Origin: Candidatus Fermentimicrarchaeum limneticum
GTDB taxonomy: Archaea > Micrarchaeota > Micrarchaeia > Burarchaeales > Fermentimicrarchaeaceae
DNA length: 64,000 nucleotides
Assembly: GCA_013426015.1 (NCBI GenBank)
Contig: CP058998.1
Coordinates: 724,071 to 788,070, forward strand
Direction of reading: 5' to 3'
How positions within the stretch are numbered: the stretch's first letter is position 1; every line of letters starts with the position of its first letter. The notes beneath the pieces are model-generated. The model was given only the letters and a program-made list of their open reading frames with translations, searched no databases and had not been told where the DNA came from. The translations under genes were made by a program, and so were the position numbers. Shown here piece after piece: positions 3,062 to 63,408 of the stretch.

Positions 3062-4594
3062 TTATTTCCTGTTGAGGGAGGAGATTCCTATCATCTCTAT
3101 CGGGCAGAAGTCGTCCGTGAGAATTGGTTCTGACGACAGGTATACGGGCCTGTCGTAGTAGGATGAGGCGAAACTGATGGTTTCAGAATTGTTTGTCAAA
3201 TTACTTATCCTCTCCACGAATTTTTCTTTAGTTCCGTAGTCGACGTCTGTTGCAAGCAGCACAATGTTGGTAGACCTGCTGTAATTGCTGTCGTCAGATG
3301 GGAATACGTAGACGTTTTTGAACTGGCTTCTGTATGTACTGAATATGGCCTTGAACATCCCTGACCTGCTGCCCTCAAGGGCAGATCCGATATTCACAAA
3401 AACTATCCCTCCTGGATTCAGGTGCTTCCTCAATTCCTCAACAAACTCGTAAGTGGTGAGGTGGAAAGGAGGCAGAGGGATTATGTAAGCATCCACCACT
3501 ATATAGTCGTAAGTCTCCTTTGATTTTGAAAGGAAGAAACGCCCGTCGCCAGTCTCAACCCTCATCCTGGCATCCTCGGAGAAGTTGAAGAAATCTTTGG
3601 CAATCTGCACGACTGCGGGGTCTATCTCCACAATGGTTATATCCGCATCCGTTCTTTCATGCATGTTCCTGGGCATCGCCCCGCCTCCCAGCCCTATGAA
3701 CAGCGCTTTTCTGGCATCCGGCTTTAATAGGTATACCAATTCCTGGTATTGCGTATAGGTGGAAGTCAGATTAGTTGAATTCAAGAATATTTGAGTCTGA
3801 CCGCCCACCCCTGTTGAGAGAGTGCGCGTGCCATCTGCTCTGTCAATAACGCGCAGGTACTGGTAAGGCGAGTAGGTCTCGTATACAACTGCGTTTTTTG
3901 CAGATGATTTGAAGTTTGCCGGCTGAGGAACCGCGTAATTGAGGAGCAGGCAAGCCGCAACCAGCAATAACCCCTTTCTGCCGAGGAATAACGCTCCGTT
4001 TGCAGCCAGAACAATGCTAAGCGAGAATATTGCCGCTTTAACTCCCATGTTGGGTATTATCACGTAGCCTGTCAGCAACGTCCCGGCTATGCTGCCAACG
4101 GTTGACACCGCGTAGATATTGCCGGAAACCTCGCCCAGCCTGCTCAGCTTTTTCGAACTCCGCTTGACCAGGTATGGGGACACCATGGCTAGCAGTATGC
4201 TGGGAACCGAGAATAGGATTGCCGACGCAACAAAAGGACCGTACATTATGCCGAAGGAGGCCGAGAAGTTCAATACGTCGTAGGAGAACAGTGGGATGAG
4301 GGCTACTGAAACAGCTGAGAGGACGAAAATCCAGCCAATGTAGGTGTAACGCGGGTTCCTGTCAGCAATCCTGCCACCGAGGAAGTAGCCGAGGCTGAGG
4401 GAGATGAGCATCACGGACAGCACACCTATCCATGTGAAAATTGAGTTGGTGAGGAAAGGTTCGAGTATCCTTGTCGCGATTATCTCCAGCACCATGACCG
4501 CCGCACCGGCAACGAAGGCCGAGATGTAGTTTTCTAGAAGCGGAGAGTCTTCCCTTGCCATATAACTGACCTGGATATGTTTATCAGTATGCAT
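3062..4594 (-). CDS. Spermidine synthase-like aminopropyltransferase fused to an N-terminal multi-pass membrane domain
   Basis: N-terminal ~200 aa hydrophobic; C-terminal LFIGLGGGAMPRNM...IVEIDPAVV...YDYIVVDAY SAM/aminopropyltransferase motifs. Confidence 0.7.
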   Translation of the reverse strand: MHTDKHIQVSYMAREDSPLLENYISAFVAGAAVMVLEIIATRILEPFLTNSIFTWIGVLSVMLISLSLGYFLGGRIADRNPRYTYIGWIFVLSAVSVALIPLFSYDVLNFSASFGIMYGPFVASAILFSVPSILLAMVSPYLVKRSSKKLSRLGEVSGNIYAVSTVGSIAGTLLTGYVIIPNMGVKAAIFSLSIVLAANGALFLGRKGLLLVAACLLLNYAVPQPANFKSSAKNAVVYETYSPYQYLRVIDRADGTRTLSTGVGGQTQIFLNSTNLTSTYTQYQELVYLLKPDARKALFIGLGGGAMPRNMHERTDADITIVEIDPAVVQIAKDFFNFSEDARMRVETGDGRFFLSKSKETYDYIVVDAYIIPLPPFHLTTYEFVEELRKHLNPGGIVFVNIGSALEGSRSGMFKAIFSTYRSQFKNVYVFPSDDSNYSRSTNIVLLATDVDYGTKEKFVERISNLTNNSETISFASSYYDRPVYLSSEPILTDDFCPIEMIGISSLNRK

Positions 4595-38781: not shown

Positions 38782-38886
38782 GAATAGATTTAAGCTGCAT
38801 CTATTTATTAACATTTCTTTAAGGTCAGCTTACCCTCTTGTCTTCATCTGGCTTTCGCCATCAGGAATACCTCGTATCATCACTAA

Positions 38887-38979
38887 TAGCCCCGGTCGGA
38901 TTCGAACCGACGTGAGCGGGTCCAAAGCCCGCTATCTTACCAGGTTTCACCAACCTCTTGGCCACTAGATGACGGGGCT
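38887..38979 (-). tRNA. tRNA-Gln (anticodon UUG) with ~19-nt intron in the D-arm
   Basis: Hand-fold: acceptor AGCCCCG/CGGGGCT+A73, anticodon arm GCGGG-CTTTGGA-CCCGC, T-arm GTCGG-TTCGAAT-CCGAC; D-stem ATCT/AGAT encloses 29 nt (loop + insert); 93 nt. Confidence 0.7.
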
Positions 38980-42102: not shown

Positions 42103-42150
42103 ATGGGGCCAGAGTGCATTAAACTTCAAGTTTTTGGATTGGGCCATAGG
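42103..42150. repeat. att-like repeat A: partial copy of the tRNA-Trp 3' end plus shared ~45-bp motif
   Basis: ATGGGGCCAGAG 12-mer identical to the plus-strand image of the tRNA-Trp 3' end at 45555-45566; ~85% identical to repeat B. Confidence 0.6.
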
Positions 42151-42232
42151 ATTTTTAAGAAATTAATAAGAAAGTAATTAATTCTAAGACAAGCTCCTTC
42201 TGGCTATTCTAGTCCTGTCAAGTAGATGACAA

Positions 42233-44743
42233 CTATTTTATTACAAAAACAGTTGCAGTCTTCTCATCCTCATCTGGCAGAGCATCTGAGTAAATCTCTC
42301 CCTTAAAAGTATGAATTTTTAAAAGCTCAACATTTCCTTTTTCGAACTTTTCTTCTGCGTATGGAGTTGCATCACTATAGGTGGTTCCCAGAATGACTTT
42401 CTTGAAGCCAGCCTTCTCTGCTAAATCCTTGACAAAACCGATCGAGGCTTCGTATATCTCATTCGTATTCTTGTAAGAGCTTGTTATGTTTATGGAATCT
42501 ATTATCAGAGTGGATTCACCCCCGATCTTGCCTGCGAAGAGCCATGCCTGCCCGATTCTCTGTTCTTTTCCTTCTTTTGTTATGGATATCTCGGCTATTT
42601 GAGTCGCAGCATCCATCATGTAGATAGGTAGAGTCCACCTGTTACCTCCATTAAAAGCAACACAGCAACCCGAATCGTTCCCGTTTGTCAAGGCAGTCAA
42701 CGGGTTTTTATCACTCAATTTCACCGAGATTATAATCTCCCCTGCTTCGCCTTTCATCGGCTTCACAGGCATGCCGAGCAATCTTTCAATCTCCTGAACA
42801 TGGAATAGGGCAGTTCTAGCCTCGCCTTTAATCTCCTCTGAGTCTACTACCATCGAACCAGGCGTTCCTGTGGTCTTTAGATACTTCTCAAGCACCGACA
42901 CTGCTTCCTTTGACCATTTTTTATCATTTGACAGCATCATCTCAATTATTGCCTTTGCTCTCTCCTCTGGGGTTTTGTAGTCCCGTGCATCAAGAGAGGT
43001 CAGTTCCGCAAATACCTTTCCCGGCTTCTTGAAAACCTCCCCTTTCGGGTTGCTGAAAAGCTGCATCACCACATCCTGGAACGTATCATTGATGTGCTCC
43101 TCTCCTGCCTCCAGCTTCTCAATTCCTGTTAATGTTTTCTTGAAGACTACTTTGTCAATCCCCTTGTAGTAGACGTAGACATCGGTATTTATTCCAAGCT
43201 TGTTCATTTCTGTGAGTGCTTGCTTATTCTCTTCTAGTGAGTCGTAGTACTTTTGGAAGGTGTTTTCAAGCCCGTACTTTATGAGTATCCTTACTTCCTC
43301 GTTTTTTTCAATAAAATCTAAACCAGATATCATTTTGATAAGATATTCCTTCTGGTCTTGGGCTATTTTTTCAAATGGGAATTTCACATCTTCCGCTATT
43401 TTCTTAGCGCCTAGGTCAATAAGCTGTGCAGAGAAGTCCTGCAGCTTGAGCCGGGAGAGCTCTTCTTTTGAGAAATTGGGTATATAACTAATAAGACGGG
43501 GATTTTTCAACAGACTAGTCACAGCAGAACTTAAATCTTGCATTGTTAATCTTTTTCCCTCTGTTTGTGTTAACAGCGCACCTAACACCTTTTCTCTCTC
43601 TCCCCAAGATTCAATAAACCCCTCCTCTTTTAGTTTTTCGTTTAACAAGTCTTCTAATTTTTTAATTTCTGATATCCACCCACTCATTTCTTCTTTGGTT
43701 TTTATGATTCCCTCCATTGCTAGATTTACAAGATTCCCTCTAATTTCAAAATCATAAAAGATATCGCAGGCTACATCTGCCACCTTTGCCCTTTTTTCAA
43801 TCTCTGGCACCCAGTCTCTCAGTTCCTCAACGGTTTTTGCCACTCCTGTTTTTACTAGTGAATCCAAATACTTCGAGCCTATTTGCCGCGTGGATGAATT
43901 AGCAGAAATAAGTTTGAAGTCTAACTCATCGTATACGCGGTCTAATCTTTTTATATGGCGTACGTCGGATTCATATAATTTCACTAGTTTTTTAAGGTCT
44001 TCTGAGGATTTTACCATGTCTTTTTTTACCAATTCGGGTAGATGGTTGCGGCATACGTACTTACCCCATAAATCATTAAACTTGAAGTCTCTCAATAGGT
44101 CTGCTTTTGCTAGGTTTGGGAAAACAAAGGATATGGGCAACCCACCGAGCTCTCTTCCATGATATTCTGCGTCCCGTGTTAATTCATGTAGTTTGACTAT
44201 TGCGTGTAAGTCATTCGGGGATTTTATCACTCCCTTATCCAACATAAGTTGTAGACTGTCTCCCCACATGATATTGCTGATAGTGATTAGTTCTAAACCG
44301 CAGCACCCTAAGTCATTCGGGGATTTTATCACTTCTTTCTTTCCTAGTTTCGAAATAAATTCATCCAGATCTATCGGTCCAACTGAGATTCCTTGATGCT
44401 CGGAAAGATATTTATGCAATCCGATCAGCTTTTTTCCATACCTTTCCAAATCTTCCGTGTCTTTTATCAGACCACTCTCTCCAAGCAGTAGGAAACCTCT
44501 TTCGAAATTCATCCAGTAACGTCCAGGTTCTGATAACTCGTATAATTTATGCAGGGCTGTAATGTTTTCAGGTGTGACCTTAAGGCGCATTCCTTTCAGT
44601 ATTCTCTCGTGAATCTCTCTTTCATAGGAGGGGATTTTCGCCAGCTCCCTCTTCATTCTCTGCTCAGGGATTTCAGGCTTTATGCGCTCTGTTTCTACTG
44701 GCTGCTCGGCAGGCGCTTCAATGGGTTTCAGCTTCTCTGGCAT
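42233..44743 (-). CDS. Large hypothetical protein (836 aa) with internal tandem repeat
   Basis: No recognisable catalytic motif; 105-bp direct DNA repeat (~44207 and ~44312) encodes duplicated (V)IKSPNDL segment; no signal peptide. Confidence 0.5.
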   Translation of the reverse strand: MPEKLKPIEAPAEQPVETERIKPEIPEQRMKRELAKIPSYEREIHERILKGMRLKVTPENITALHKLYELSEPGRYWMNFERGFLLLGESGLIKDTEDLERYGKKLIGLHKYLSEHQGISVGPIDLDEFISKLGKKEVIKSPNDLGCCGLELITISNIMWGDSLQLMLDKGVIKSPNDLHAIVKLHELTRDAEYHGRELGGLPISFVFPNLAKADLLRDFKFNDLWGKYVCRNHLPELVKKDMVKSSEDLKKLVKLYESDVRHIKRLDRVYDELDFKLISANSSTRQIGSKYLDSLVKTGVAKTVEELRDWVPEIEKRAKVADVACDIFYDFEIRGNLVNLAMEGIIKTKEEMSGWISEIKKLEDLLNEKLKEEGFIESWGEREKVLGALLTQTEGKRLTMQDLSSAVTSLLKNPRLISYIPNFSKEELSRLKLQDFSAQLIDLGAKKIAEDVKFPFEKIAQDQKEYLIKMISGLDFIEKNEEVRILIKYGLENTFQKYYDSLEENKQALTEMNKLGINTDVYVYYKGIDKVVFKKTLTGIEKLEAGEEHINDTFQDVVMQLFSNPKGEVFKKPGKVFAELTSLDARDYKTPEERAKAIIEMMLSNDKKWSKEAVSVLEKYLKTTGTPGSMVVDSEEIKGEARTALFHVQEIERLLGMPVKPMKGEAGEIIISVKLSDKNPLTALTNGNDSGCCVAFNGGNRWTLPIYMMDAATQIAEISITKEGKEQRIGQAWLFAGKIGGESTLIIDSINITSSYKNTNEIYEASIGFVKDLAEKAGFKKVILGTTYSDATPYAEEKFEKGNVELLKIHTFKGEIYSDALPDEDEKTATVFVIK

Positions 44744-44791
44744 GGTTGAATTATGCCCTTTCTAGCTATTAAAATTATGCTAAAATCAGGA

Positions 44792-44840
44792 GTGGGGCCA
44801 GAGCCGATTAAATTTCAGGTTTTTCATTTGGGCCCATAAA
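44792..44840. repeat. att-like repeat B: partial copy of the tRNA-Trp 3' end plus shared motif
   Basis: TGGGGCCAGAG 11-mer identical to tRNA-Trp 3' end; ~85% identical to repeat A. Confidence 0.6.
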
Positions 44841-44877
44841 TTCCCGCTTTGAGGTATGCAAAATAAAAAAAATTAGA

Positions 44878-45477
44878 CTACTGGCAGCAGTGGAAAGGTT
44901 TGCTGGTGTAGGATGGATCGGCAACTCTATTTGCACCACACTCGTCTGGCAGGTTTTGGACTACAATTGGCATTATTTGACCGCCAGGACTAAGCCACTC
45001 GTTGGACCACTCGCCTCCGGTTGGGATGGTGATTGCTCCAGCATGGCATGCGCCATAAAGTTGCGGTATGTCACACAAAGTCTTGTTTTCACTCTGGCAT
45101 TGCGCCATAGAATCATCTATTGACTTTGCACTATTTGAAGAGGTGTCTATGCAGAAAGCTCCTGCCCTTGTCATATCAGTAGGACATGGAAGTTGGGCTA
45201 TAGTTACTGCTGGACCAGGATTTCCTTGGGATCCTTGCGGTCCGGCTGGCCCAGTATCTCCTTCTGGACCTTGGGGTCCCACCGAACCTGTATCGCCTTT
45301 AGATCCCTGAGGTCCTACATCACCTCTTGAACCTTGGGGTCCTATTGGACCAGTATCGCCCTTCGGACCCTGCTGTCCGGTATCACCCTTCGCTCCTTGC
45401 GGTCCTGCGGGACCTACCTGTGTGCAACCGGCAAAAAACAGCGCTACAATCAATAAGACAATTAAGAGCCTTCTCAT
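44878..45477 (-). CDS. Collagen-like (Gly-X-Y repeat) lipoprotein with Cys-rich C-terminal domain
   Basis: Signal peptide plus lipobox-like [18 protein letters not shown]; ~25 uninterrupted G-X-Y triplets; C-terminal ~110 aa with 8 Cys. Confidence 0.65.
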
Positions 45478-45555
45478 TACCTTCACCCCCAATTATTTAG
45501 TTAGGGCTTTTTAATATATGCATTAGTCAAGATAATCCTTTATAAGATAAATGTA

Positions 45556-45722
45556 TGGGGCCAGAGGGATTTGAACCCTCATTAACAGGTGTCTCATAAA
45601 GCATCTCATCCTTTGTCAATGCTCCAATTCTAAATCATCCCCGAAGGTCATTCCACCTGTAACAATGCTCCTCTACAAAAGGAACTGGAGCCTGTTGTTC
45701 TGCCAAGTTATACCATGGCCCC
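45556..45722 (-). tRNA. tRNA-Trp (anticodon CCA) with ~90-nt intron at or near the canonical position
   Basis: Hand-fold: acceptor GGGGCCA/TGGCCCC+A73, anticodon stem ACAGG/CCTGT with loop CTCCAG..., T-arm GAGGG-TTCAAAT-CCCTC; 167 nt precursor. Confidence 0.7.
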
Positions 45723-45753
45723 TTGCAGAGTTATTTTGAAAAATCAGATTTAA

Positions 45754-46911
45754 TTACTTTGCTATCTTTTCCACTTTCTTGACTATCTCCTCCAGAACCA
45801 TCTTGTCAAATCCCTGATTCACTCTCAGCCCGGCAGCTACGTCATGCCCTCCTCCGCTGTCAATCGCACCTTTCATCTCGCTTTTCAACTCTGAGATAAG
45901 CTGGTTTGCATTGAATCCTGCTTCCTTCGCTTTTCTGTTCGCCCTAAAGTGCATCATCCGCTCCCCGTATCCGACAGTAACAAGCGGCGCATTTAATTTC
46001 TTGTCAAAGTCATCGTGGACCTCGCCGGTTATCTTGCCCCTTCCAGGAAACTCGCCAGACCTGAACTTGTCAAGCCTAAGCAGCACCAGCTTGAAACCAT
46101 TATCGAATTCCTTCAGCTTCGAGTATCTGGCCGCATCCTTCTTCACACGCTCTATCTTCTTCATTGCTCGTTTGTAGATTGACTCCATCTTATTCTGGTC
46201 CTTGAGTATTGAATAGTATAACTCAAGGCTCTCCGCAAAATCCGAGCTTGATGCTACAAAATCAAGCACAAGTGCTTTGTGGTTCAGCTCACCTTCTGGC
46301 AGCTGGATGAGCCTGCTCTTGTCACCTATCAGGGCGATTTTCTGGAACTCTTCAAGTTCGGAGGAGTAATCAATCTTCTTGGCTATCTCCCCCGCAATAA
46401 AGCCGGCGGAATAGTCTGAATTGCCGCCGTGCAGCCATGGCGATACAAGCAGGTCCGCTGCCCGGGTGACTTCTTCCTGCAGCGGGTGATGGTCTGCTAT
46501 GAGCAGCTTGAAGTTGGAGTTCTTCAACGCCTTCATCGAGTCTAGGCTCTCGGAGTTCACAGAGAAATCCAGCAGAATCGCCAGCGGAGGCTGTGAAGGT
46601 TGCATATTCCTTATGAGCTCTATATCATCCACAACAGCACCAAGCCCGTATATGGCGGAGGGATTTTTGAAAATGAGCGTCCGTCTCCTCTGTCCCTCCC
46701 AAGCCTTGTTGCCGACCAGCCCCTTAATTGAGAAGTAGATGGACAGCGCGGCGCATATCCCATCGCAATCCCCGTGGTATCTCATAAGAATGGGGCTTGC
46801 TGCGTTCACTGCGGTCTTTATAATCTCTGCAGCACTTTCAAAATCCGTTCTCATCCTATTCAGGACTTCGTCTGAGTTGATAAAGGCGGCTATGTCATCT
46901 GTGTTGGGCAT
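45754..46911 (-). CDS. DHH-family phosphoesterase (RecJ-like / NrnA-like)
   Basis: HGDCDG and DHH motifs; DHHA1-like GGGH near C-terminus; ATG at 46911. Confidence 0.75.
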   Translation of the reverse strand: MPNTDDIAAFINSDEVLNRMRTDFESAAEIIKTAVNAASPILMRYHGDCDGICAALSIYFSIKGLVGNKAWEGQRRRTLIFKNPSAIYGLGAVVDDIELIRNMQPSQPPLAILLDFSVNSESLDSMKALKNSNFKLLIADHHPLQEEVTRAADLLVSPWLHGGNSDYSAGFIAGEIAKKIDYSSELEEFQKIALIGDKSRLIQLPEGELNHKALVLDFVASSSDFAESLELYYSILKDQNKMESIYKRAMKKIERVKKDAARYSKLKEFDNGFKLVLLRLDKFRSGEFPGRGKITGEVHDDFDKKLNAPLVTVGYGERMMHFRANRKAKEAGFNANQLISELKSEMKGAIDSGGGHDVAAGLRVNQGFDKMVLEEIVKKVEKIAK

Positions 46912-53991: not shown

Positions 53992-54086
53992 TGGACTCGG
54001 CGAGATGTTCAGCAGTTTGGAAACTACTTTTGAACTCGCGGCCTCCTCCTCGCAAAGGAGGCGCTCTACCACTGAGCTACGAGCCC
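53992..54086 (-). tRNA. tRNA-Ala (anticodon UGC) in the 16S-23S spacer, with ~23-nt intron in the T-loop
   Basis: Hand-fold: acceptor GGGCUCG/CGAGUCC+A73, D-arm GCUC-AGUGGUA-GAGC, anticodon arm CCUCC-UUUGCGA-GGAGG, T-stem GCGAG...CUCGC with TTCAAA[insert]T loop; 95 nt. Confidence 0.75.
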
Positions 54087-54595
54087 ATCGGCTTCAAGAA
54101 CTATTAGGAGTGAGCGTATTGATGTTCGCTTACCTTGCACTCACACTTTTTCATTCTCGTATCATGGAACGAAAATTTAAGGAGGTGATCTATCCGCAGG
54201 TTCCCCTACGGATACCTTGTTACGACTTAGCCCCTCTCATGACGAATTAGCTCGACGAGATCCGAAGGGATCCCGCCTCACTAAAACTTCATTTGAGTGA
54301 CTTGACGGGCGGTGTGTGCAAGGAGCGGGGACGTATTCACCGCTCGATGTTGACAAGCGATTACTAGGGATTCCAGCTTCATGAGGGCGAGTTTCAGCCC
54401 TCAATCCGAACCTAGGCCGAGTTTGGGGATTAGCTCCTCCTCTCGGAGTGGCAACCCATTGTCTCGACCATTGTATGCCACGTGTAGCCCGGGAGATTCA
54501 GGGCATACTGACCTACCGTTGCCGTCTCCTTCCTCCTGTTTAACACAGGCAGTCCCAACAGAGTGCTTCATCTCCGGAGAGATGAATAGCAACTG

Positions 54596-55105
54596 TCAGC
54601 GACGGTCTCGCTCGTTTCCGGACCGCATGAGTGCTTTTTTTACTTCGGAGTGCTTCATAGAATCCTTGACAAAAACAATGAATTCCCTTGGAGTCATTAT
54701 TGCCAGCCTTCCTTTGATGAATCTGGTTCTGAAGCCCAGAAGCTCAAGTAGCATCTGGTCCTTGTACGAAGCACGCGCCAGGTAAGGCGTGTCCCCCTCT
54801 ACCCCGCCGCAGGAATCGAACATCCCTGCAACGTATGAGGAGGAGTATCTGTTCCTTTTCCTGAAAACATCTATTTGATTCTTCTCAGCTCCCTCAAAGA
54901 ATGTCCTGTACGCTGAATGATAGAAGTACACGTCCCTGTCAGTCATCTGTATCTTCTCTGGAGGAATCTTCAGCGTCTTCATTATTTCTTTCAGGAAAAT
55001 CTCCCTGATCTCTCCGCTGCCTCGTATTCCGATTCCACTGGGAACCCTCCTTCCTTTCCATAAACCTATTAGGTATGCCAGTTCAGGCGTCATTTTAATT
55101 CTCAT
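54596..55105 (-). CDS. LAGLIDADG-like homing endonuclease ORF encoded in the 16S rRNA intron (motif 1 degenerate)
   Basis: Two LAGLIDADG-type motifs (LAYLIGLWKG lacking acidic residues; YVAGMFDSCGGV); ORF 3' end runs ~22 nt into the downstream exon. Confidence 0.6.
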   Translation of the reverse strand: MRIKMTPELAYLIGLWKGRRVPSGIGIRGSGEIREIFLKEIMKTLKIPPEKIQMTDRDVYFYHSAYRTFFEGAEKNQIDVFRKRNRYSSSYVAGMFDSCGGVEGDTPYLARASYKDQMLLELLGFRTRFIKGRLAIMTPREFIVFVKDSMKHSEVKKALMRSGNERDRR

Positions 55106-55147
55106 TCTCTCACTCCAAAACGGATGCACTCATGCGATTTACCGGAC
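54618..55147 (-). mobile_element. 16S rRNA intron (archaeal bulge-helix-bulge type) carrying an endonuclease-like ORF
   Basis: Insertion between GGUUAAGUCCGG and AACGAGCGAGACC; flanks GCAUGAGUGC / GCACUCAUGC can pair; GUCCGG duplicated at both junctions. Confidence 0.8.
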
Positions 55148-55287
55148 TTAACCGGACACTTCACAGCACGAGCTGACGATGGCCATGCACCACCTCTCGG
55201 CTCGTCAGGTAAGATCTTCAGTCTGACCTTCATACTGCCGTCGCTCCCGGTGATATTCCCGGCGTTGAATCCAATTAAACCGCAGCA

Positions 55288-55330
<43 letters not shown>

Positions 55331-56415
55331 ACCTTGCGGCCGTACTCCCCAGGCGGCAGACTTAACACTTACGCTACGGCACTGCCACAGCACTAAGCTA
55401 TGGCAACACCACAGTCTGCATAATTTACTGCTAGGGCTACTCGGGTATCTAATCCGATTCGTTCTCCTAGCCTTCGTCCCTCACTGTCGGACGCGTTTTG
55501 GCCAAGCGCCTTCGCCACTGGGAGTCCTCACAGGATTAACGGATTTTACCCCTACCCCGTGAGTACTCTTGGCCTCCCCCGCTCCCAAGCCCGTCAGTAT
55601 TCTCTGCACTCCTTCAAGTTGAGCTTGAAGATTTCACAGAGAACTTAGCGGGCCAGCTACGGACTCTTTAAGCCCAATATTCGTGGATACCACTCGAGCT
55701 GCCGGTGTTACCGCGGCGGCTGTCACCGGTCTTGCCCAGCTCTTATTCCGCAAGCTCCTTAAGCTTACGAAAAGATGCTCGCGTGGAGCATCACTCAGAA
55801 TCCCCTCGTCACGCTTTCGCGCATTGCGAAGGTTTCGCGCCTGCTGCATCCCGTAGGACTGGAGCCCTTGTCTCAGTGCTCCTCTGGGGGCGCCAACTCC
55901 CATTGCCCCCACCGATTATCGGCTTGGTGGGCCGTTACCCCACCAACTACCTAATCGGAAGCAGTCTCATCCTAAGGCAGACATGGCTGCATTTCGCCAC
56001 GCTGTTTGGGCTATGAAGCTTTCCAGCATCCATAACCTATGTGGTATTAGCCTCAGTTTCCCGAGGTTATCCCCCTCCTTAGGGCAGATTGACCACTCGC
56101 TACTCAGCCGTATGCCACCCCTCCTTGCAGAAGGGGTAGACTTGCATGGCTTAGTCGAATTCTGATAGCAGTACCCTCCAGCAGGATCAACTGGAATTAG
56201 AGCACACTATTCTTCCGCAAGTTCGGCGAAAAGACACCACTATCGCTCACTTCTCCTGTTCTTGAAGCCAGAGTCAAATCCAAACAAGCTTGGATTTCCA
56301 TCGATATTATGCGCTATAGAGGAAGGGTATATCTCACAGCACGAAATAGAATTCGCGCTCCATTTACGCCGTAATCTACAGCGTCCGCACGGCGAAAGAA
56401 GATTATGCACTCTCT

Positions 56416-59202: not shown

Positions 59203-59817
59203 ATGAAATCTGAAGCAATAATAAACTATTACTTCCAAAATGAATCAGGTGGTTTGTTGAGGTTTCCGCCCATAATGCGCAATTTGAAGAGAGGTCCGCA
59301 GGTTGTGCTACCGAAGGATTTCGGGATGGTTGCCGCTTTCACAGGAATTGGCAAGAAAAGCACTGTTGTGGATGCAGGCACAGGAAGCGGGTTCCTTGCA
59401 ATAGCGCTTGGTAATATAGTAAAGAGCGTTGTCACCTATGAGAAGAGGGAGGACTTTGTGAAGCTTGCGGAGAGGAACATCAAGGCAAGCGGGTTGAGGA
59501 ATGTCAAAATAAAAAGGAAAGATGTCTTCAAGGGAATAAGTGAAAGGGATGTGGATTTGGTGACGCTGGACTTGGCAGATTCCGAGAAGGCCATCAGACA
59601 TGCAAAGAGAGCATTGAAGGATGGGGGGTATGCTGTTGGCTTCCTGCCAAACATGGAGCAGGTGAAGGAGTTTGTGAGGGAGCTGGAGAAGAACAAATTC
59701 TCAGAAGTTTTCACGATGGAATGCATAACAAGAGAAATTCTTGTCAGGGAACAGGGAGTGAGACCTGAGAACATGGGGCTGATGCACACGGTGTATCTTA
59801 CTTTCGGGAGAAAGTAG
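59203..59817 (+). CDS. trmI: SAM-dependent tRNA methyltransferase, TrmI-like (tRNA m1A)
   Basis: VVDAGTGSGFLAIAL SAM-binding motif; C-terminal ...RPENMGLMHTVYLTFGRK resembles TrmI/Gcd14. Confidence 0.65.
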   Translation: MKSEAIINYYFQNESGGLLRFPPIMRNLKRGPQVVLPKDFGMVAAFTGIGKKSTVVDAGTGSGFLAIALGNIVKSVVTYEKREDFVKLAERNIKASGLRNVKIKRKDVFKGISERDVDLVTLDLADSEKAIRHAKRALKDGGYAVGFLPNMEQVKEFVRELEKNKFSEVFTMECITREILVREQGVRPENMGLMHTVYLTFGRK

Positions 59818-60351
59818 TCAGATAAGCTTCTTCTCATAGACATTCTCATAAACCGGTCCTTTGGGAGTCAGGGTGCTCTTCTTGAGAAGAATCCTGTCAA
59901 CCGTGCAGTCTCCGAGTTCAGTCTCGGCGTTCGTCTCAAGGAATTCAATCAGCTTTGTTTTGTCTTTCAGGAATTTCACCCTCGCCAGCGTTATATGGGG
60001 CGAGAAATCTTCTTTCTTGAAACCAAGCCTTGCAAGCTCCCCTCCAAGTTGGTCGTGGATACTCTTCAGCTCAGGTGCGTCAACACCGACCCAGATAACT
60101 CGTATGTAATTCCTGTTGGGGAATGCCCCGGCACAGTTGCAGCTCATCTCAAACTTTCTGCAGTTCACCTTTTCCATTGCCTGGGTTACCTTGCCCTTCA
60201 TGGTGTCGTCTATCTCTCCTAGGAAGTGCATGGTTAGATGCAGGTTCTCCTTCTCAACAAGCTTCACTCCGTCAATGGAGAGCTGCTTCTGCAGTTCTGC
60301 CATCTTCTCCCTTAGCCGTTCGTCCACTTCAACTGCAATGAAAGTTCGCAT
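59818..60351 (-). CDS. thpR: RNA 2',3'-cyclic phosphodiesterase (2H phosphoesterase, ThpR/LigT family)
   Basis: Two H-x-T-x motifs (HLTMHFLG, PHITLARV); 177 aa from ATG 60351. Confidence 0.8.
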   Translation of the reverse strand: MRTFIAVEVDERLREKMAELQKQLSIDGVKLVEKENLHLTMHFLGEIDDTMKGKVTQAMEKVNCRKFEMSCNCAGAFPNRNYIRVIWVGVDAPELKSIHDQLGGELARLGFKKEDFSPHITLARVKFLKDKTKLIEFLETNAETELGDCTVDRILLKKSTLTPKGPVYENVYEKKLI

Positions 60352-60363
60352 ATGGTAATTTAA

Positions 60364-60939
60364 ATGAAAGCCAGATATAAGAGTTTTATGATTGTGATTG
60401 GCGTTGCAGGGCTGAGAGCAGCTGGCAAGAGCATTGCCAACGAAGTTGCAAAGGAGTTTGGGGTTAATTCGGTAGAAATGAGAAGCATAGTAGTTGACAT
60501 GATGAAGGAGAAGAGGATCGCGGTAACCAACAGGAGCCTTAGGGAATTCGCAGACGAATTGAGGAAGAAGGAAGGTTATGATGTTGTTGCGAGAAAGGTT
60601 ATTGAGAAGATCAAGAAGATGAATGAGAAGGCGCTTGTAGTGAACGGAATAAGAGGTTATGAGGAACTGAAGCGTTTCAGGGAGGCTTTCGGCGACAAGT
60701 TTATCCTCATAGGAGTTTTCGCTCCTCAGAAAATGAGATTTGAGAGGGTGATTAAGAGGAATCTGCCGGAGGATCCGAAGAGCTGGGAGGAGTTCGTGTG
60801 GGCTGACGAGAAGGAGCTGGGGTGGGGCACAGCGGACTCCTTCGCGTTCTCTGATCACATAATTGTGAATGCGGAGACGAAGGAGGAGATGAGGGAAGAG
60901 GTGCAAAAACTGCTGAAGAAGCTGCTTGCAAAAGGATAG
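60364..60939 (+). CDS. P-loop nucleotide kinase-like protein (archaeal dephospho-CoA kinase/UPF0200-like)
   Basis: Walker A GLRAAGKS; 191 aa; family assignment tentative. Confidence 0.55.
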   Translation: MKARYKSFMIVIGVAGLRAAGKSIANEVAKEFGVNSVEMRSIVVDMMKEKRIAVTNRSLREFADELRKKEGYDVVARKVIEKIKKMNEKALVVNGIRGYEELKRFREAFGDKFILIGVFAPQKMRFERVIKRNLPEDPKSWEEFVWADEKELGWGTADSFAFSDHIIVNAETKEEMREEVQKLLKKLLAKG

Positions 60940-60976
60940 ATTTTTATTGAACTTCTGAGATATCTGTGTGGTTAGA

Positions 60977-61816
60977 ATGAGAAAATTGTTTTGGGTGCTC
61001 ATCTTTGCGGCAGTGGCAGTTAACGCCACATACGTGAACATAAAGGAGCCCTTCCCATCAAGCGGTTTGGTTGAGAACAGCAGCATCTACATGGGCAAGG
61101 CGGCTCCTGGGCAGACGGTTTATATAGTTGCCGAGAGAGCAACGATAGACGCGGCTGGCGGGAGTATGATCTACATGGGGTGGGACAAGCTGGCGATTGA
61201 GGATTTGCCGGAAGGCTGGACCGCGGAGGACAGCCCGTGGTATGAGACCCCCATGAAGGCTAAGATAAGGATATCCCCTGACGCGAAGAACGGTACGAGA
61301 TATTATTTCAAGGCCAAGGCTGTGGATGAGGGGAACCTCAACGGCCTGGGAAATCTGACGATAAACGTTTCCATTGACGTGAGCGATGATGTTTTCAAGA
61401 TAGATGTCAGCCCGCCGGAAGTTGAAACGGGGGTTGGACAGCCGGCAATTTATTACATAGACATAGAGAACGAGGGGGCTGCAAGCGATACGTTCAGCAT
61501 CACCTCAAGAGGAGTGCCGGCATGGAAATTCAAGAAGGACGTATTCGTGCCGCATGCGATTGACGTCACTCTGCAGGCAAAGAAGACTGTTCCCTATGAG
61601 GTCGTGAGCAACGAGCAGAATGAGATGGACATATACATAAACGTTACATCCCTCTCAAGCGACCAGATAAGCAGGGAGGTTAGGGTGACGCTTAAAGCGA
61701 GACCCTCCCTGATTTCGGATTACAGGGCAACCGGCCATGGTTTGCTGGTGTTCCCGCTCATAGAGAGCCCTATATACTCGCTCATAGCGTTCTTCTCAAA
61801 TTCCTTCTTTAGGTAG
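60977..61816 (+). CDS. Secreted/cell-surface protein of unknown function with C-terminal membrane anchor
   Basis: N-terminal signal peptide (MRKLFWVLIFAAVAVNA), several N-x-S/T sequons, C-terminal hydrophobic segment. Confidence 0.5.
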   Translation: MRKLFWVLIFAAVAVNATYVNIKEPFPSSGLVENSSIYMGKAAPGQTVYIVAERATIDAAGGSMIYMGWDKLAIEDLPEGWTAEDSPWYETPMKAKIRISPDAKNGTRYYFKAKAVDEGNLNGLGNLTINVSIDVSDDVFKIDVSPPEVETGVGQPAIYYIDIENEGAASDTFSITSRGVPAWKFKKDVFVPHAIDVTLQAKKTVPYEVVSNEQNEMDIYINVTSLSSDQISREVRVTLKARPSLISDYRATGHGLLVFPLIESPIYSLIAFFSNSFFR

Positions 61817-61821
61817 AATGA

Positions 61822-63408
61822 ATGAAAAAACAAAACATGAGCGATAGTATTGAGAAGGCTAGCGAGGAGGTTGCACAACTCATTCTCAAAGACAGGATAA
61901 GAAACAGGATGGGGCTGTGGGATGCAAAGATTCGCGCCAGCGAGAAATACGGTATTGCTGGTGTGATACGAAATTCTGACGTACTGCGGTGCATACCTGA
62001 GGGAAAAAGGAGAAAGTTCGCTGAGCTTCTTAGAATACGACCGATGAGGACGATTTCTGGCGTGAATGTGATAGCAGTTATGACAAGGGGCGAGTGCCCT
62101 GGCAGGTGCATATACTGCCCGAGAGGGGAGAATGCGCCTAAGAGCTACACTGGCAGGGAGCCGGCTGCCATGAGGGCGATACAGAACGAGTATGATCCTT
62201 TGAGGCAGGTGGATTCCAGAGTGAGGCAACTCGAGGAGATAGGGCACAAGGTGAGCAAGTGCGAGCTCATCATAATGGGCGGGACGTTCAACTCCATGCC
62301 GCAGGAGTACCAGCAGTGGTTTGTCAAGAGATGTTTTGACGCACTGAACGGGGTTGAGTCAAAAACTCTTGAGGAAGCGCAGCTTGCAAACGAGAACGCC
62401 GTGAGGAGGATGGTCGGGCTGACGATAGAGACGAGGCCGGACTGGGCCGGAAGGAAGGAGGTTGACGAACTGCTGCGCTACGGAACAACAAGGATTGAGC
62501 TGGGTGTGCAGACGCTTGACGATGAGGTTTACAGGAAGGTGAAGAGAGGACACGGAGTGAAGGAGGTCGCTGAGGCGACAAGAGTATGCAAGGATTCCCT
62601 CCTGAAAGTCTTATACCACATGATGCCTGGCTTGTTTGCGGAGAAGAAGGACGATATTAGGAATTTCAAAACTCTTTTTGAGGATAGAAGGTTCATGCCT
62701 GACATGCTGAAGATATATCCCTGCCTTGTCATGGAGGGAACCGAGCTGCACAGACTGTGGAGGGATGGGAAGTTCAAACCATATTCAACAGAGGAAGCGG
62801 CGGAGGTAATTGCGGAAGCAATGAAATTCGTGCCACGCTATGTGAGAGTTATGAGGGTGCAGAGGGACATTCCCTCCCATCTGATTGCTGATGGAGTGAG
62901 GAAGAGCAACCTGAGACAACTGGTTGAACAGAAGCTGGTTAAGGATGGAAGAAGGTGCGAGTGCATACGCTGCAGGGAGATAGGCTACAGGATTATGAAG
63001 GATGGGATAGAACCTGAGTTGGACAGCATCAAGCTGAACAGGATGGATTACGATGCTTCCGAAGGGAAGGAAATCTTCCTAAGCTTTGATGAGATGAAGC
63101 ATGATGCGCTGCTGGGGTTACTGAGGCTGAGGATTCCGTCTGAGAAGACTCACAGGAAGGAACTGAAGGGAGCCGCAGGTGTTAGGGAGCTGCACGTTTA
63201 CGGGGAGATGCTGCCCGTTGGTGAGAAAAGGGTTAAGGAGTTCCAGCACATGGGTCTGGGAACGAAATTGCTGAAGGAAGCTGAAAAAATAGCAAAAGAG
63301 GAGTTCGACTGCAGGAAGCTTGCAGTCATAAGTGGAGTTGGGGCTAGGGAATACTACTTCAAGCTCGGGTATAAAAGGGATGGTCCCTACGTTTCAAAAA
63401 TGCTATAG
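61822..63408 (+). CDS. elp3: Elongator protein 3 homologue (radical-SAM + GNAT tRNA-modifying enzyme)
   Basis: Radical SAM CPGRCIYCP cluster motif; C-terminal GNAT domain; 528 aa. Confidence 0.9.
   Translation: MKKQNMSDSIEKASEEVAQLILKDRIRNRMGLWDAKIRASEKYGIAGVIRNSDVLRCIPEGKRRKFAELLRIRPMRTISGVNVIAVMTRGECPGRCIYCPRGENAPKSYTGREPAAMRAIQNEYDPLRQVDSRVRQLEEIGHKVSKCELIIMGGTFNSMPQEYQQWFVKRCFDALNGVESKTLEEAQLANENAVRRMVGLTIETRPDWAGRKEVDELLRYGTTRIELGVQTLDDEVYRKVKRGHGVKEVAEATRVCKDSLLKVLYHMMPGLFAEKKDDIRNFKTLFEDRRFMPDMLKIYPCLVMEGTELHRLWRDGKFKPYSTEEAAEVIAEAMKFVPRYVRVMRVQRDIPSHLIADGVRKSNLRQLVEQKLVKDGRRCECIRCREIGYRIMKDGIEPELDSIKLNRMDYDASEGKEIFLSFDEMKHDALLGLLRLRIPSEKTHRKELKGAAGVRELHVYGEMLPVGEKRVKEFQHMGLGTKLLKEAEKIAKEEFDCRKLAVISGVGAREYYFKLGYKRDGPYVSKML

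Follow-up and report, generated by a model that had tools for sequence, protein, structure and literature searches.

Among archaeal tRNA introns with a function, the self-targeting intron of tRNA-Trp is the textbook example, known mainly from descriptions in Euryarchaeota. A tRNA-Trp gene of Candidatus Fermentimicrarchaeum limneticum, a member of the Micrarchaeota among the DPANN archaea, raises the question whether an intron can be such a guide when its boxes depart from the consensus and from the usual order. The gene lies on the minus strand at 45556-45722 of the stretch of DNA analysed here (64,000 nucleotides of contig CP058998.1, hereafter the window). The reading favoured, at a probability of about 0.65, is that the intron acts as a guide of the box C/D type, directing 2'-O-methylation of its own tRNA-Trp, with the order guide39-D'-C'-guide34-D-C, and that the canonical order is restored only in a circle or when the tRNA holds the intron ends together.

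The tRNA-Trp gene and its intron

The Rfam tRNA model matches the minus strand at 45556-45722 with 43.6 bits (E 5.7e-6, whole window) and aligns 98 nucleotides (nt) as an insertion in the anticodon loop. Run without its intron option, ARAGORN makes no call of this gene; once introns are permitted, it calls tRNA-Trp(cca), i(39,94), whose 73-nt spliced sequence adopts a regular tRNA-Trp(CCA) fold. The original prediction, a tRNA-Trp with an intron of about 90 nt, is thus borne out by both programs, with an intron of 94 nt at the canonical 37/38 site, between G37 and A38. The gene does not encode the CCA end. Intron nucleotides are numbered below in the RNA sense, nucleotide i being window coordinate 45685 - i.

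45748..45756, minus strand: putative promoter, A/T-rich and TATA-like, UAAUUAAAU, about 26-34 nt upstream of tRNA position 1 and overlapping the stop codon of the gene upstream
45685..45722, minus strand: 5' exon of tRNA-Trp(CCA), 38 nt, ending ...ACAGG-CUCCAG (G37); Rfam tRNA model and ARAGORN with introns
45591..45684, minus strand: intron, 94 nt, canonical 37/38 site; Rfam tRNA model, ARAGORN and homologous introns in relatives
45591..45602, minus strand: 3' tail of the intron, GCUUUAUGAGAC, intron nt 83-94, read from the sequence
45556..45590, minus strand: 3' exon, 35 nt (A38 CCUGU ... A73); Rfam tRNA model and ARAGORN

Upstream of the tRNA, AGTAATTAAATCTGATTTTTCAAAATAA is kept in an alignment of the relatives' loci, and the TATA-like UAAUUAAAU may act as the promoter. 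In one relative, L008 (loci of the survey are given as L numbers), a GC-rich insert of about 330 nt (3374-3708) stands between the upstream gene and the conserved promoter region.

The splicing signal is a relaxed bulge-helix-bulge. In its central helix (helix H), C32-C34 pair with the GAG of the 3' tail and the fourth pair is a C.U mismatch, while the 3-nt bulge at the 3' splice site, AC|A, adjoins the anticodon stem. A Thermoplasmata intron, in which GGAG-AG|A is perfect, served as the check on this register, and Methanobacteriales introns have the same kind of central-helix mismatch. Micrarchaeum (ARMAN-2) has an epsilon2 endonuclease that cleaves relaxed motifs (PMC3239211).

The gene upstream of tRNA-Trp encodes a DHH/RecJ-like protein with homologues in metagenomes and in metagenome-assembled genomes (MAGs) labelled Candidatus Micrarchaeia and Micrarchaeota. 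In nine related contigs, with DHH homologues of 59-95% identity, the DHH gene is followed by tRNA-Trp with a homologous intron of 89-97 nt, and a homologous intron is also found in further genome and metagenome contigs; because the same syntenic place is held in nine contigs, with further contigs besides, gene and intron are neither chance nor an assembly artefact. At the distant DHH homologues L010-L012, synteny with tRNA-Trp is lost.

A general pattern (anticodon, TGA-N8-TGGAG-NN-YTGA, T-loop), applied to a single genome of each species, matched at least 120 stretches, and all of the matches listed are archaeal tRNA-Trp genes. Among these listed matches the sources are Methanobacteriales, Archaeoglobi, Thermoplasmatota, Poseidoniia, Halobacteriales and Ignisphaera, with single contigs labelled Bathyarchaeota and Nitrososphaeria and two Micrarchaeota. 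The contig labelled Nitrososphaeria (L089, 1.1 kb) carries a tRNA-Trp and intron of Archaeoglobi type, nearly identical to Archaeoglobaceae matches, and its label may reflect mis-binning, not a true occurrence. A lineage-specific pattern run on metagenomes yielded 11 more loci. The introns resembling that of the window, here type A, comprise 15 distinct sequences of 89-97 nt; type B, a second Micrarchaeota type found at L109, L134, L135 and L137, has introns of about 64 nt in a different tRNA body.

Guides, boxes and their order

The intron contains the following elements, in the order of the RNA.

45668..45684, minus strand: hairpin HP1, UUCCUUU-UGU-AGAGGAG, intron nt 1-17, from the 5' splice site on; RNAalifold consensus and single-sequence folds
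45654..45660, minus strand: guide 39 core ACAGGUG, intron nt 25-31, a run of 7 base pairs (bp)
45648..45651, minus strand: D'-like box AUGA, intron nt 34-37, in the position and register of D' (CUGA) of canonical introns such as Archaeoglobus L021
45640..45647, minus strand: hairpin CC-UUCG-GG, intron nt 38-45, between D' and C' (the C-stem of a kink-turn, or K-turn); covariation
45632..45638, minus strand: C'-like box AUGAUUU, intron nt 47-53, the same in every type A sequence
45620..45631, minus strand: guide 34, 12 nt, AGAAUUGGAGCA, intron nt 54-65, antisense to the anticodon region
45616..45619, minus strand: D-like box UUGA, intron nt 66-69, invariant in Micrarchaeota
45610..45615, minus strand: linker CAAAGG, 6 nt, purine-rich, intron nt 70-75, variable in sequence among relatives
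45603..45609, minus strand: C-like box AUGAGAU, intron nt 76-82, 3' of D; its GAUGA is invariant while the linker varies

The original prediction had considered a guide of the box C/D type and had named complementarity to positions 34 and 39 as the check; both antisense elements are found in the N+5 register, upstream of UUGA and AUGA respectively, and their place before xUGA boxes supports that reading. Guide 34 forms a 10-bp duplex with G31-G37 and intron nt 1-3, which spans the 5' exon-intron junction and sets C34 opposite the fifth nucleotide upstream of UUGA. Guide 39 pairs over 7 bp with the last intron nucleotide and A38-U43; this duplex spans the 3' junction and sets C39 opposite the fifth nucleotide upstream of AUGA, and it is also predicted in cis by RNAalifold. 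The arrangement follows the rules established for C/D guides of archaea, a guide length of 10-12 nt and N+5 (PMC7994747). When the intron was shuffled 200,000 times, with any NUGA accepted as a box, guide 34 was reproduced in 55 shuffles (2.8e-4), guide 39 in 2,241 (1.1e-2) and both together in none.

Conservation extends to the geometry and the pairing of guide 34. The spacer from C' to D, for which 10-12 nt would be expected, is exactly 12 nt in all nine synteny-derived relatives, and intron nt 1-3 change together with their partners in the guide (type A, UUC/GAA; type B, AU/AU; Archaeoglobus, CGG/CCG). The pair formed by intron nt 1 is accordingly U-A, A-U and C-G in the three lineages.

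All four boxes retain a UGA core. The sequences GGAUGAU and GGAUGAG, picked out beforehand as near-matches to box C, are present at intron nt 45-51 and 74-80 and correspond to the C' and C-like strands, whose best registers are AUGAUUU and AUGAGAU; the earlier remark that no CUGA could be seen also holds, as the intron contains none. Read as AUGAUUU, box C' keeps U at L3, GA for the sheared pairs and U5 for the U.U pair, and its U6 is Watson-Crick to A1 of D' (A-U) in place of the consensus G6-C1. The register GGGAUGA was rejected for C', as the would-be sheared G is A in L005, L008, L009 and L027. The stem of the hairpin between D' and C' covaries (CC/GG, CUC/GAG, GC/GC, GCGC/GCGC): 100% of cells are paired and all three pairs have changed on both sides, against 37-53% in slid controls.

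The C-like box AUGAGAU is proposed to be the K-loop partner of UUGA, through G.A, A.G, G.U and A6-U1, and would on that ground be box C. Its A6 is Watson-Crick to U1 of UUGA, with U.G in L004, and the linker after UUGA is found as CAAAGG, GGAAAG, GAAAGG, UGAGGG, AAAAAG, AGAAAG or AAAAGG. Independently, RNAalifold pairs UGGAGCAUU with GAUGCUUUA, the flanks of UUGA and AUGAGAU, in exactly the K-turn register; the helix continues the non-canonical stem of the proposed D/C K-turn and leaves GA...GA opposed across a loop of 8 nt.

With its apparent box C placed 3' of box D, the intron departs from the canonical box order. No RUGAUGA-like box is present in the first 20 intron nt, and a consensus C...CUGA terminal stem was not found; such a box precedes guide 39 in no Micrarchaeota or Ignisphaera sequence surveyed, whereas most CUGA-type introns surveyed (mainly euryarchaeal) do have it. 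A strict regular expression, C-12-D'-C'-12-D, likewise found nothing in the window or in the Micrarchaeota loci. Type B lacks guide 39 and otherwise keeps the layout of type A: UUGA is followed 3-4 nt later by an AUGAU box, L109 included, and since only 12-14 nt precede D' there is no room for a 5' box C at normal spacing. The order guide39-D'-C'-guide34-D-C is read from the lack of a 5' box C, from the C-like box after UUGA and from the like arrangement in type B.

The same function could also be served by a canonical, unpermuted architecture, in which AGGAGCA (intron nt 12-18) is a degenerate box C before guide 39, the 5' UCCUUU(U) pairs with the purine linker (UCCUUU/AAAGGA), and GAUGAG in the 3' extension has another role. 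The linker is indeed purine-rich in every type A sequence, with 4-6 bp possible with UUCCUUUU, and AGGAGCA holds a GA 14 nt before AUGA. Yet AGGAGCA, the sole box C candidate in the 5' part, matches RUGAUGA at only 4 of 7 positions, the would-be stem is 7 nt from the GA instead of 3, the pyrimidine tract is predicted to be engaged in HP1, and the stem shows no covariation because its 5' strand is invariant. Type B has no such element in its 12-14 nt before D' and nevertheless keeps AUGAU after UUGA, and the 4n-4b compensation and the RNAalifold helix fit the D/C K-loop. An unpermuted architecture is therefore considered distinctly improbable.

Changes in HP1 among relatives are one-sided only. 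In the HP1 region, GGAGCAUUG (intron nt 14-22) duplicates the 3' part of guide 34 and the start of box D; GGAGCAUU(G) accordingly occurs twice in the intron, at 45664-45671 and 45618-45625 (intron nt 14-21 and 60-67). Either copy of GGAGCAUU can pair with GAUGCUUUA of the 3' tail (45597-45605), the 5' copy being also part of HP1, and AUGCUUUA of the tail can pair with either copy of GGAGCAU. The two copies of GGAGCAUU might work as a conformational switch by which guide 34 is freed, or they might be left over from a duplication that gave rise to the permutation. Single-sequence minimum free energy folds, linear or circular, do not model K-turns and are uninformative on the boxes.

Several observations weigh against a permuted guide. 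None of the four boxes is fully consensus and there is no CUGA, though the same genome has a free-standing C/D small RNA (sRNA) with consensus boxes, found by a relaxed half-mer scan.

38825-38883, minus strand: consensus C/D sRNA, GUGAUGA-UACGAGGUAUUC-CUGA-UGGCGAAAGCCAG-AUGAAGA-CAAGAGGGUAAG-CUGA

This sRNA, laid out from 38883 to 38825 as GUGAUGA-12 nt-CUGA-UGGC GAAA GCCA-G-AUGAAGA-12 nt-CUGA, has a D' guide that matches the 23S rRNA of the window itself over 11 bp, anchored at N+5. The sRNA, with its hairpin covarying, is conserved in L004 (from 15555) and L133 (from 7281, minus strand); in the window it starts 3 nt after a tRNA, a dicistronic arrangement that resembles the one in Nanoarchaeum, and in L004 and L133 it is not linked to a tRNA. 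The Rfam family sR2 matches it weakly (E = 0.09, below the family threshold), for which no support was counted. Its conservation across the window, L004 and L133 makes it probable that C/D ribonucleoproteins (RNPs) are in use in the lineage, and the odd boxes are probably specific to the tRNA-Trp intron. L7Ae, Nop5 and fibrillarin were not found among the 24 window open reading frames (ORFs) scanned with Pfam.

Further difficulties concern the intron itself. In the permuted layout the path from box C to D' runs through the intron ends and measures 45 nt, not 12, and RNAalifold predicts that, in naked RNA, the 3' tail pairs with 9 of the 12 guide-34 nucleotides. The model scan proposed in the original prediction lent no support, as Rfam C/D models, run permissively on the intron region, gave chance-level matches only (SNORD26 E 0.63, sR33 E 7.7). 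HP1 and the duplicated GGAGCAUUG are left unexplained by the model. The type B evidence for the C-like box carries an ascertainment bias, because the pattern that retrieved three of the four sequences demanded ATGA after TTGA; L109 was found without that demand.

Another explanation is that the intron is descended from a C/D intron and is now a mere intron, its complementarities folding the precursor for splicing and its boxes being remnants. Non-consensus boxes and the absence of a significant Rfam C/D match fit this explanation, as do the Sulfolobus intron, likewise without consensus boxes (PMC3326292), and the Haloferax intron, which together with its methylations is dispensable for growth (PMC11408192, citing Joardar 2008). 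It is nonetheless very improbable: loops and linkers drift, whereas neither the UGA of any box nor the exact spacing of 12 nt varies, the D'-C' hairpin covaries, the guide duplexes compete with the bulge-helix-bulge and do not form it, and an intron of 64-97 nt is maintained in the reduced genomes of two divergent lineages.

Function at position 39 is less secure than at position 34, because the distance from guide 39 to AUGA differs by +/-1 nt in four relatives (L005, L008, L009 and L141) and guide 39 is absent from type B. These same facts would be accounted for by a single-guide RNA, in which only the unit C'-12 nt-D (Cm34) is functional and the position-39 antisense is either a relic in decay or an intramolecular helix giving the precursor its shape. 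The invariance of guide 34, C' and D, the mismatch of guide 39 in L008, its chance rate of 1.1% and the lack of position-39 complementarity in most surveyed Methanobacteriales introns all point the same way. On the other hand, the register in the window and in most type A sequences is exactly that of canonical introns having guide 39, and the changes in guide 39 preserve pairing (G for A where the partner is U, and a G.U pair at the last intron nucleotide). A single guide is accordingly regarded as rather unlikely, and the two-guide, permuted reading is retained in what follows.

Precedents and a possible mechanism

Excised tRNA-Trp introns form stable circles in Haloferax and Sulfolobus, the Sulfolobus circle being very stable (PMC3326292), and the Haloferax intron guides Cm34 and Um39 in trans (PMC4090602, PMC11408192). 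With the euryarchaeal guide intron (Haloferax volcanii, Pyrococcus; Clouet d'Orval 2001 and Singh 2004, as reviewed in PMC4090602, PMC11408192 and PMC3326292) the window intron shares the tRNA-Trp, the 37/38 site, the order guide39-D'-C'-guide34-D, the N+5 registers for 34 and 39, the junction-spanning duplexes and the 12-nt spacer before D. It differs in its boxes (D UUGA, D' AUGA, C' AUGAUUU), in lacking both a box C ahead of guide 39 and a terminal C/D stem, in the C-like box 6 nt after D, in its extra 5' hairpin and 3' tail, in having C and not U at position 39, and in its DPANN host. The Archaeoglobus intron L021 is canonical with registers identical to those of the window, CGGUA-GAUGAUGA-UAAACGGGUCUG-CUGA-ACA-GUGAUGA-CCCGUUGGAGCG-CUGA-CCCGAAGAG|.

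Other precedents lie closer to the unusual features. The Sulfolobus solfataricus intron, by its published description, is like that of the window in combining non-consensus boxes with retained complementarity to 34 and 39 (PMC3326292). Introns of Ignisphaera MAGs (L025, L058, L111) read guide39-D'(AUGA, UUGA or UCGA)-hairpin-C'(GAUGARA)-guide34-UUGA and end 7-11 nt later; they share with the window intron D = UUGA and the D'-hairpin-C' unit, L058 having AUGA as D', and unlike it they show no C-like box on either side of the unit, so that their D box is without a visible K-turn partner. In Nanoarchaeum equitans, sRNA24 and sRNA26 are permuted C/D box sRNAs for which the correct box order has been proposed only in the circular RNA (PMC3491384). 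As these are described, box D upstream of box C in the gene and a DPANN host are shared with the window; the Nanoarchaeum sRNAs, however, are free-standing genes with no defined circularisation mechanism, whereas circularisation of a tRNA intron would come with splicing. Permuted tRNAs and the signal recognition particle (SRP) RNA of Thermoproteus (PMC4731332) also have their element order restored by splicing-type excision and ligation, as would happen here, but they belong to another RNA class and the permuted RNA is the product, where here it would be a by-product, the intron. A literature search found no report on tRNA-Trp introns or fibrillarin of Micrarchaeota or DPANN. By function and descent the intron is rated as the known tRNA-Trp intron guide, deviating in its lack of the canonical terminal motif and in its phylum, with the Sulfolobus intron and the Nanoarchaeum sRNAs as nearest precedents.

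K-turn formation, protein binding, methylation, circularisation and the order of these events are inferred here from sequence, and may be pictured as follows. The intron would form two local K-turn-type motifs of the design 'D box - short loop or hairpin - C box', namely AUGA-CCUUCGGG-(G)AUGAUUU and UUGA-CAAAGG-AUGAGAU, each of which would be bound by L7Ae, with recruitment of Nop5-fibrillarin. On the pre-tRNA, guide 34 would put C34, the wobble base, at the fifth position from UUGA and lead to Cm34, and in type A guide 39 would put C39 at the fifth position from AUGA and lead to Cm39. Intron nucleotides take part in both duplexes, which also compete with the helix at the splice site and with the anticodon stem, so the substrate should be the unspliced pre-tRNA; methylation would then precede splicing as in Haloferax, probably in trans. 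The splicing endonuclease would cut the relaxed bulge-helix-bulge and release the intron, presumably to be circularised. The gene order would be a circular permutation of the canonical C-guide39-D'-C'-guide34-D; the canonical order would arise again only if the intron were circularised or if its two ends were kept together by the tRNA body.

A stronger form of this mechanism, in which the permuted C/D RNA attains the canonical order C...D'-C'...D only after the endonuclease and an RNA ligase have excised and circularised it, is offered tentatively. Assembly of a complete guide RNP would then be mechanically coupled to splicing, both K-motifs would be of the hairpin type, and the duplicated GGAGCAUUG would compete to free guide 34 from the 3' tail.

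Neighbourhood of the gene and meaning of the intron

The original prediction had also remarked that the tRNA appears to be an integration target, and this is supported by direct repeats, by variable cargo and by an integrase in a relative.

42104..45566, strand not assigned: integration hotspot with two inserted segments, delimited by direct repeats of the tRNA 3' end

The final 11 nt of the tRNA, CTCTGGCCCCA in the tRNA sense, form an 11-bp repeat with copies at 45556-45566, 44793-44803 and 42104-42114. The tRNA-proximal segment carries a collagen-repeat ORF (44878-45492), the second bracketed segment an ORF of 836 amino acids (aa; 42233-44743) without a family match, and GC content is 0.41-0.45 in the hotspot against about 0.50 elsewhere. 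The sequence after copy 2 of CTCTGGCCCCA is that which directly follows tRNA-Trp in L001, the sequence after copy 3 resembles that following tRNA-Trp in L004, and homology links the arms that precede copies 2 and 3. Cargo downstream of tRNA-Trp differs among relatives: L002 has at the same place an integrase-bearing island of about 8.5 kb that ends in the same arm, and the tRNA-proximal segment of 0.75 kb is 96.6% identical to L027, where the flanking acyltransferase is only 64% identical in protein. No integrase was found in the window, and PHROGs and Pfam searches of the ORFs of the island and of an insert in the 16S rRNA gene gave only collagen-repeat matches.

That 16S rRNA gene (54180-56197, minus strand) has a single insertion of 525 nt at about 54622-55146, after model position ~1033 (GUUAAG|), which is probably an rRNA intron; a 177-aa ORF in it (54596-55129, minus strand) has no Pfam or PHROG match and no recognisable homing-endonuclease domain. 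In the 16S-23S spacer, a tRNA-Ala(UGC) (53992-54086, minus strand), called truncated or odd by ARAGORN and Rfam, has a T-loop insertion of about 23 nt near 59/60 (roughly 54006-54028), the same non-canonical site as in pre-tRNA-Cys of ARMAN-2 (PMC3239211). A tRNA-Gln(UUG)-like gene (38887-38979, minus strand; AGCCCCG...CGGGGCU-A, anticodon loop CUUUGGA) is missed by ARAGORN and scores 28.4 bits with the Rfam tRNA model, against a threshold of 29; its D-loop of about 29 nt suggests a non-canonical intron. About 14 kb from tRNA-Trp lies a cluster of genes for RNA modification and RNA repair (59203-63408). A GCD14/Trm61-like methyltransferase is encoded at 59203-59817; a LigT/2H phosphoesterase domain is found in a 422-aa protein encoded on the minus strand at 59818-61086; and 61822-63408 encodes an Elp3-like radical SAM/GNAT protein.

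For annotation, the case is relevant because standard tRNA and C/D finders overlook a tRNA-Trp gene of this kind. The presence of the intron in genome-reduced DPANN, and also in Thermoproteota-like genomes, argues for an ancient partnership of intron and guide that has been kept as genomes shrink. How a guide with rearranged boxes might still assemble is suggested by their order: a C/D RNP may be buildable from two local D-loop-C motifs, and circularisation coupled to splicing could complete it.

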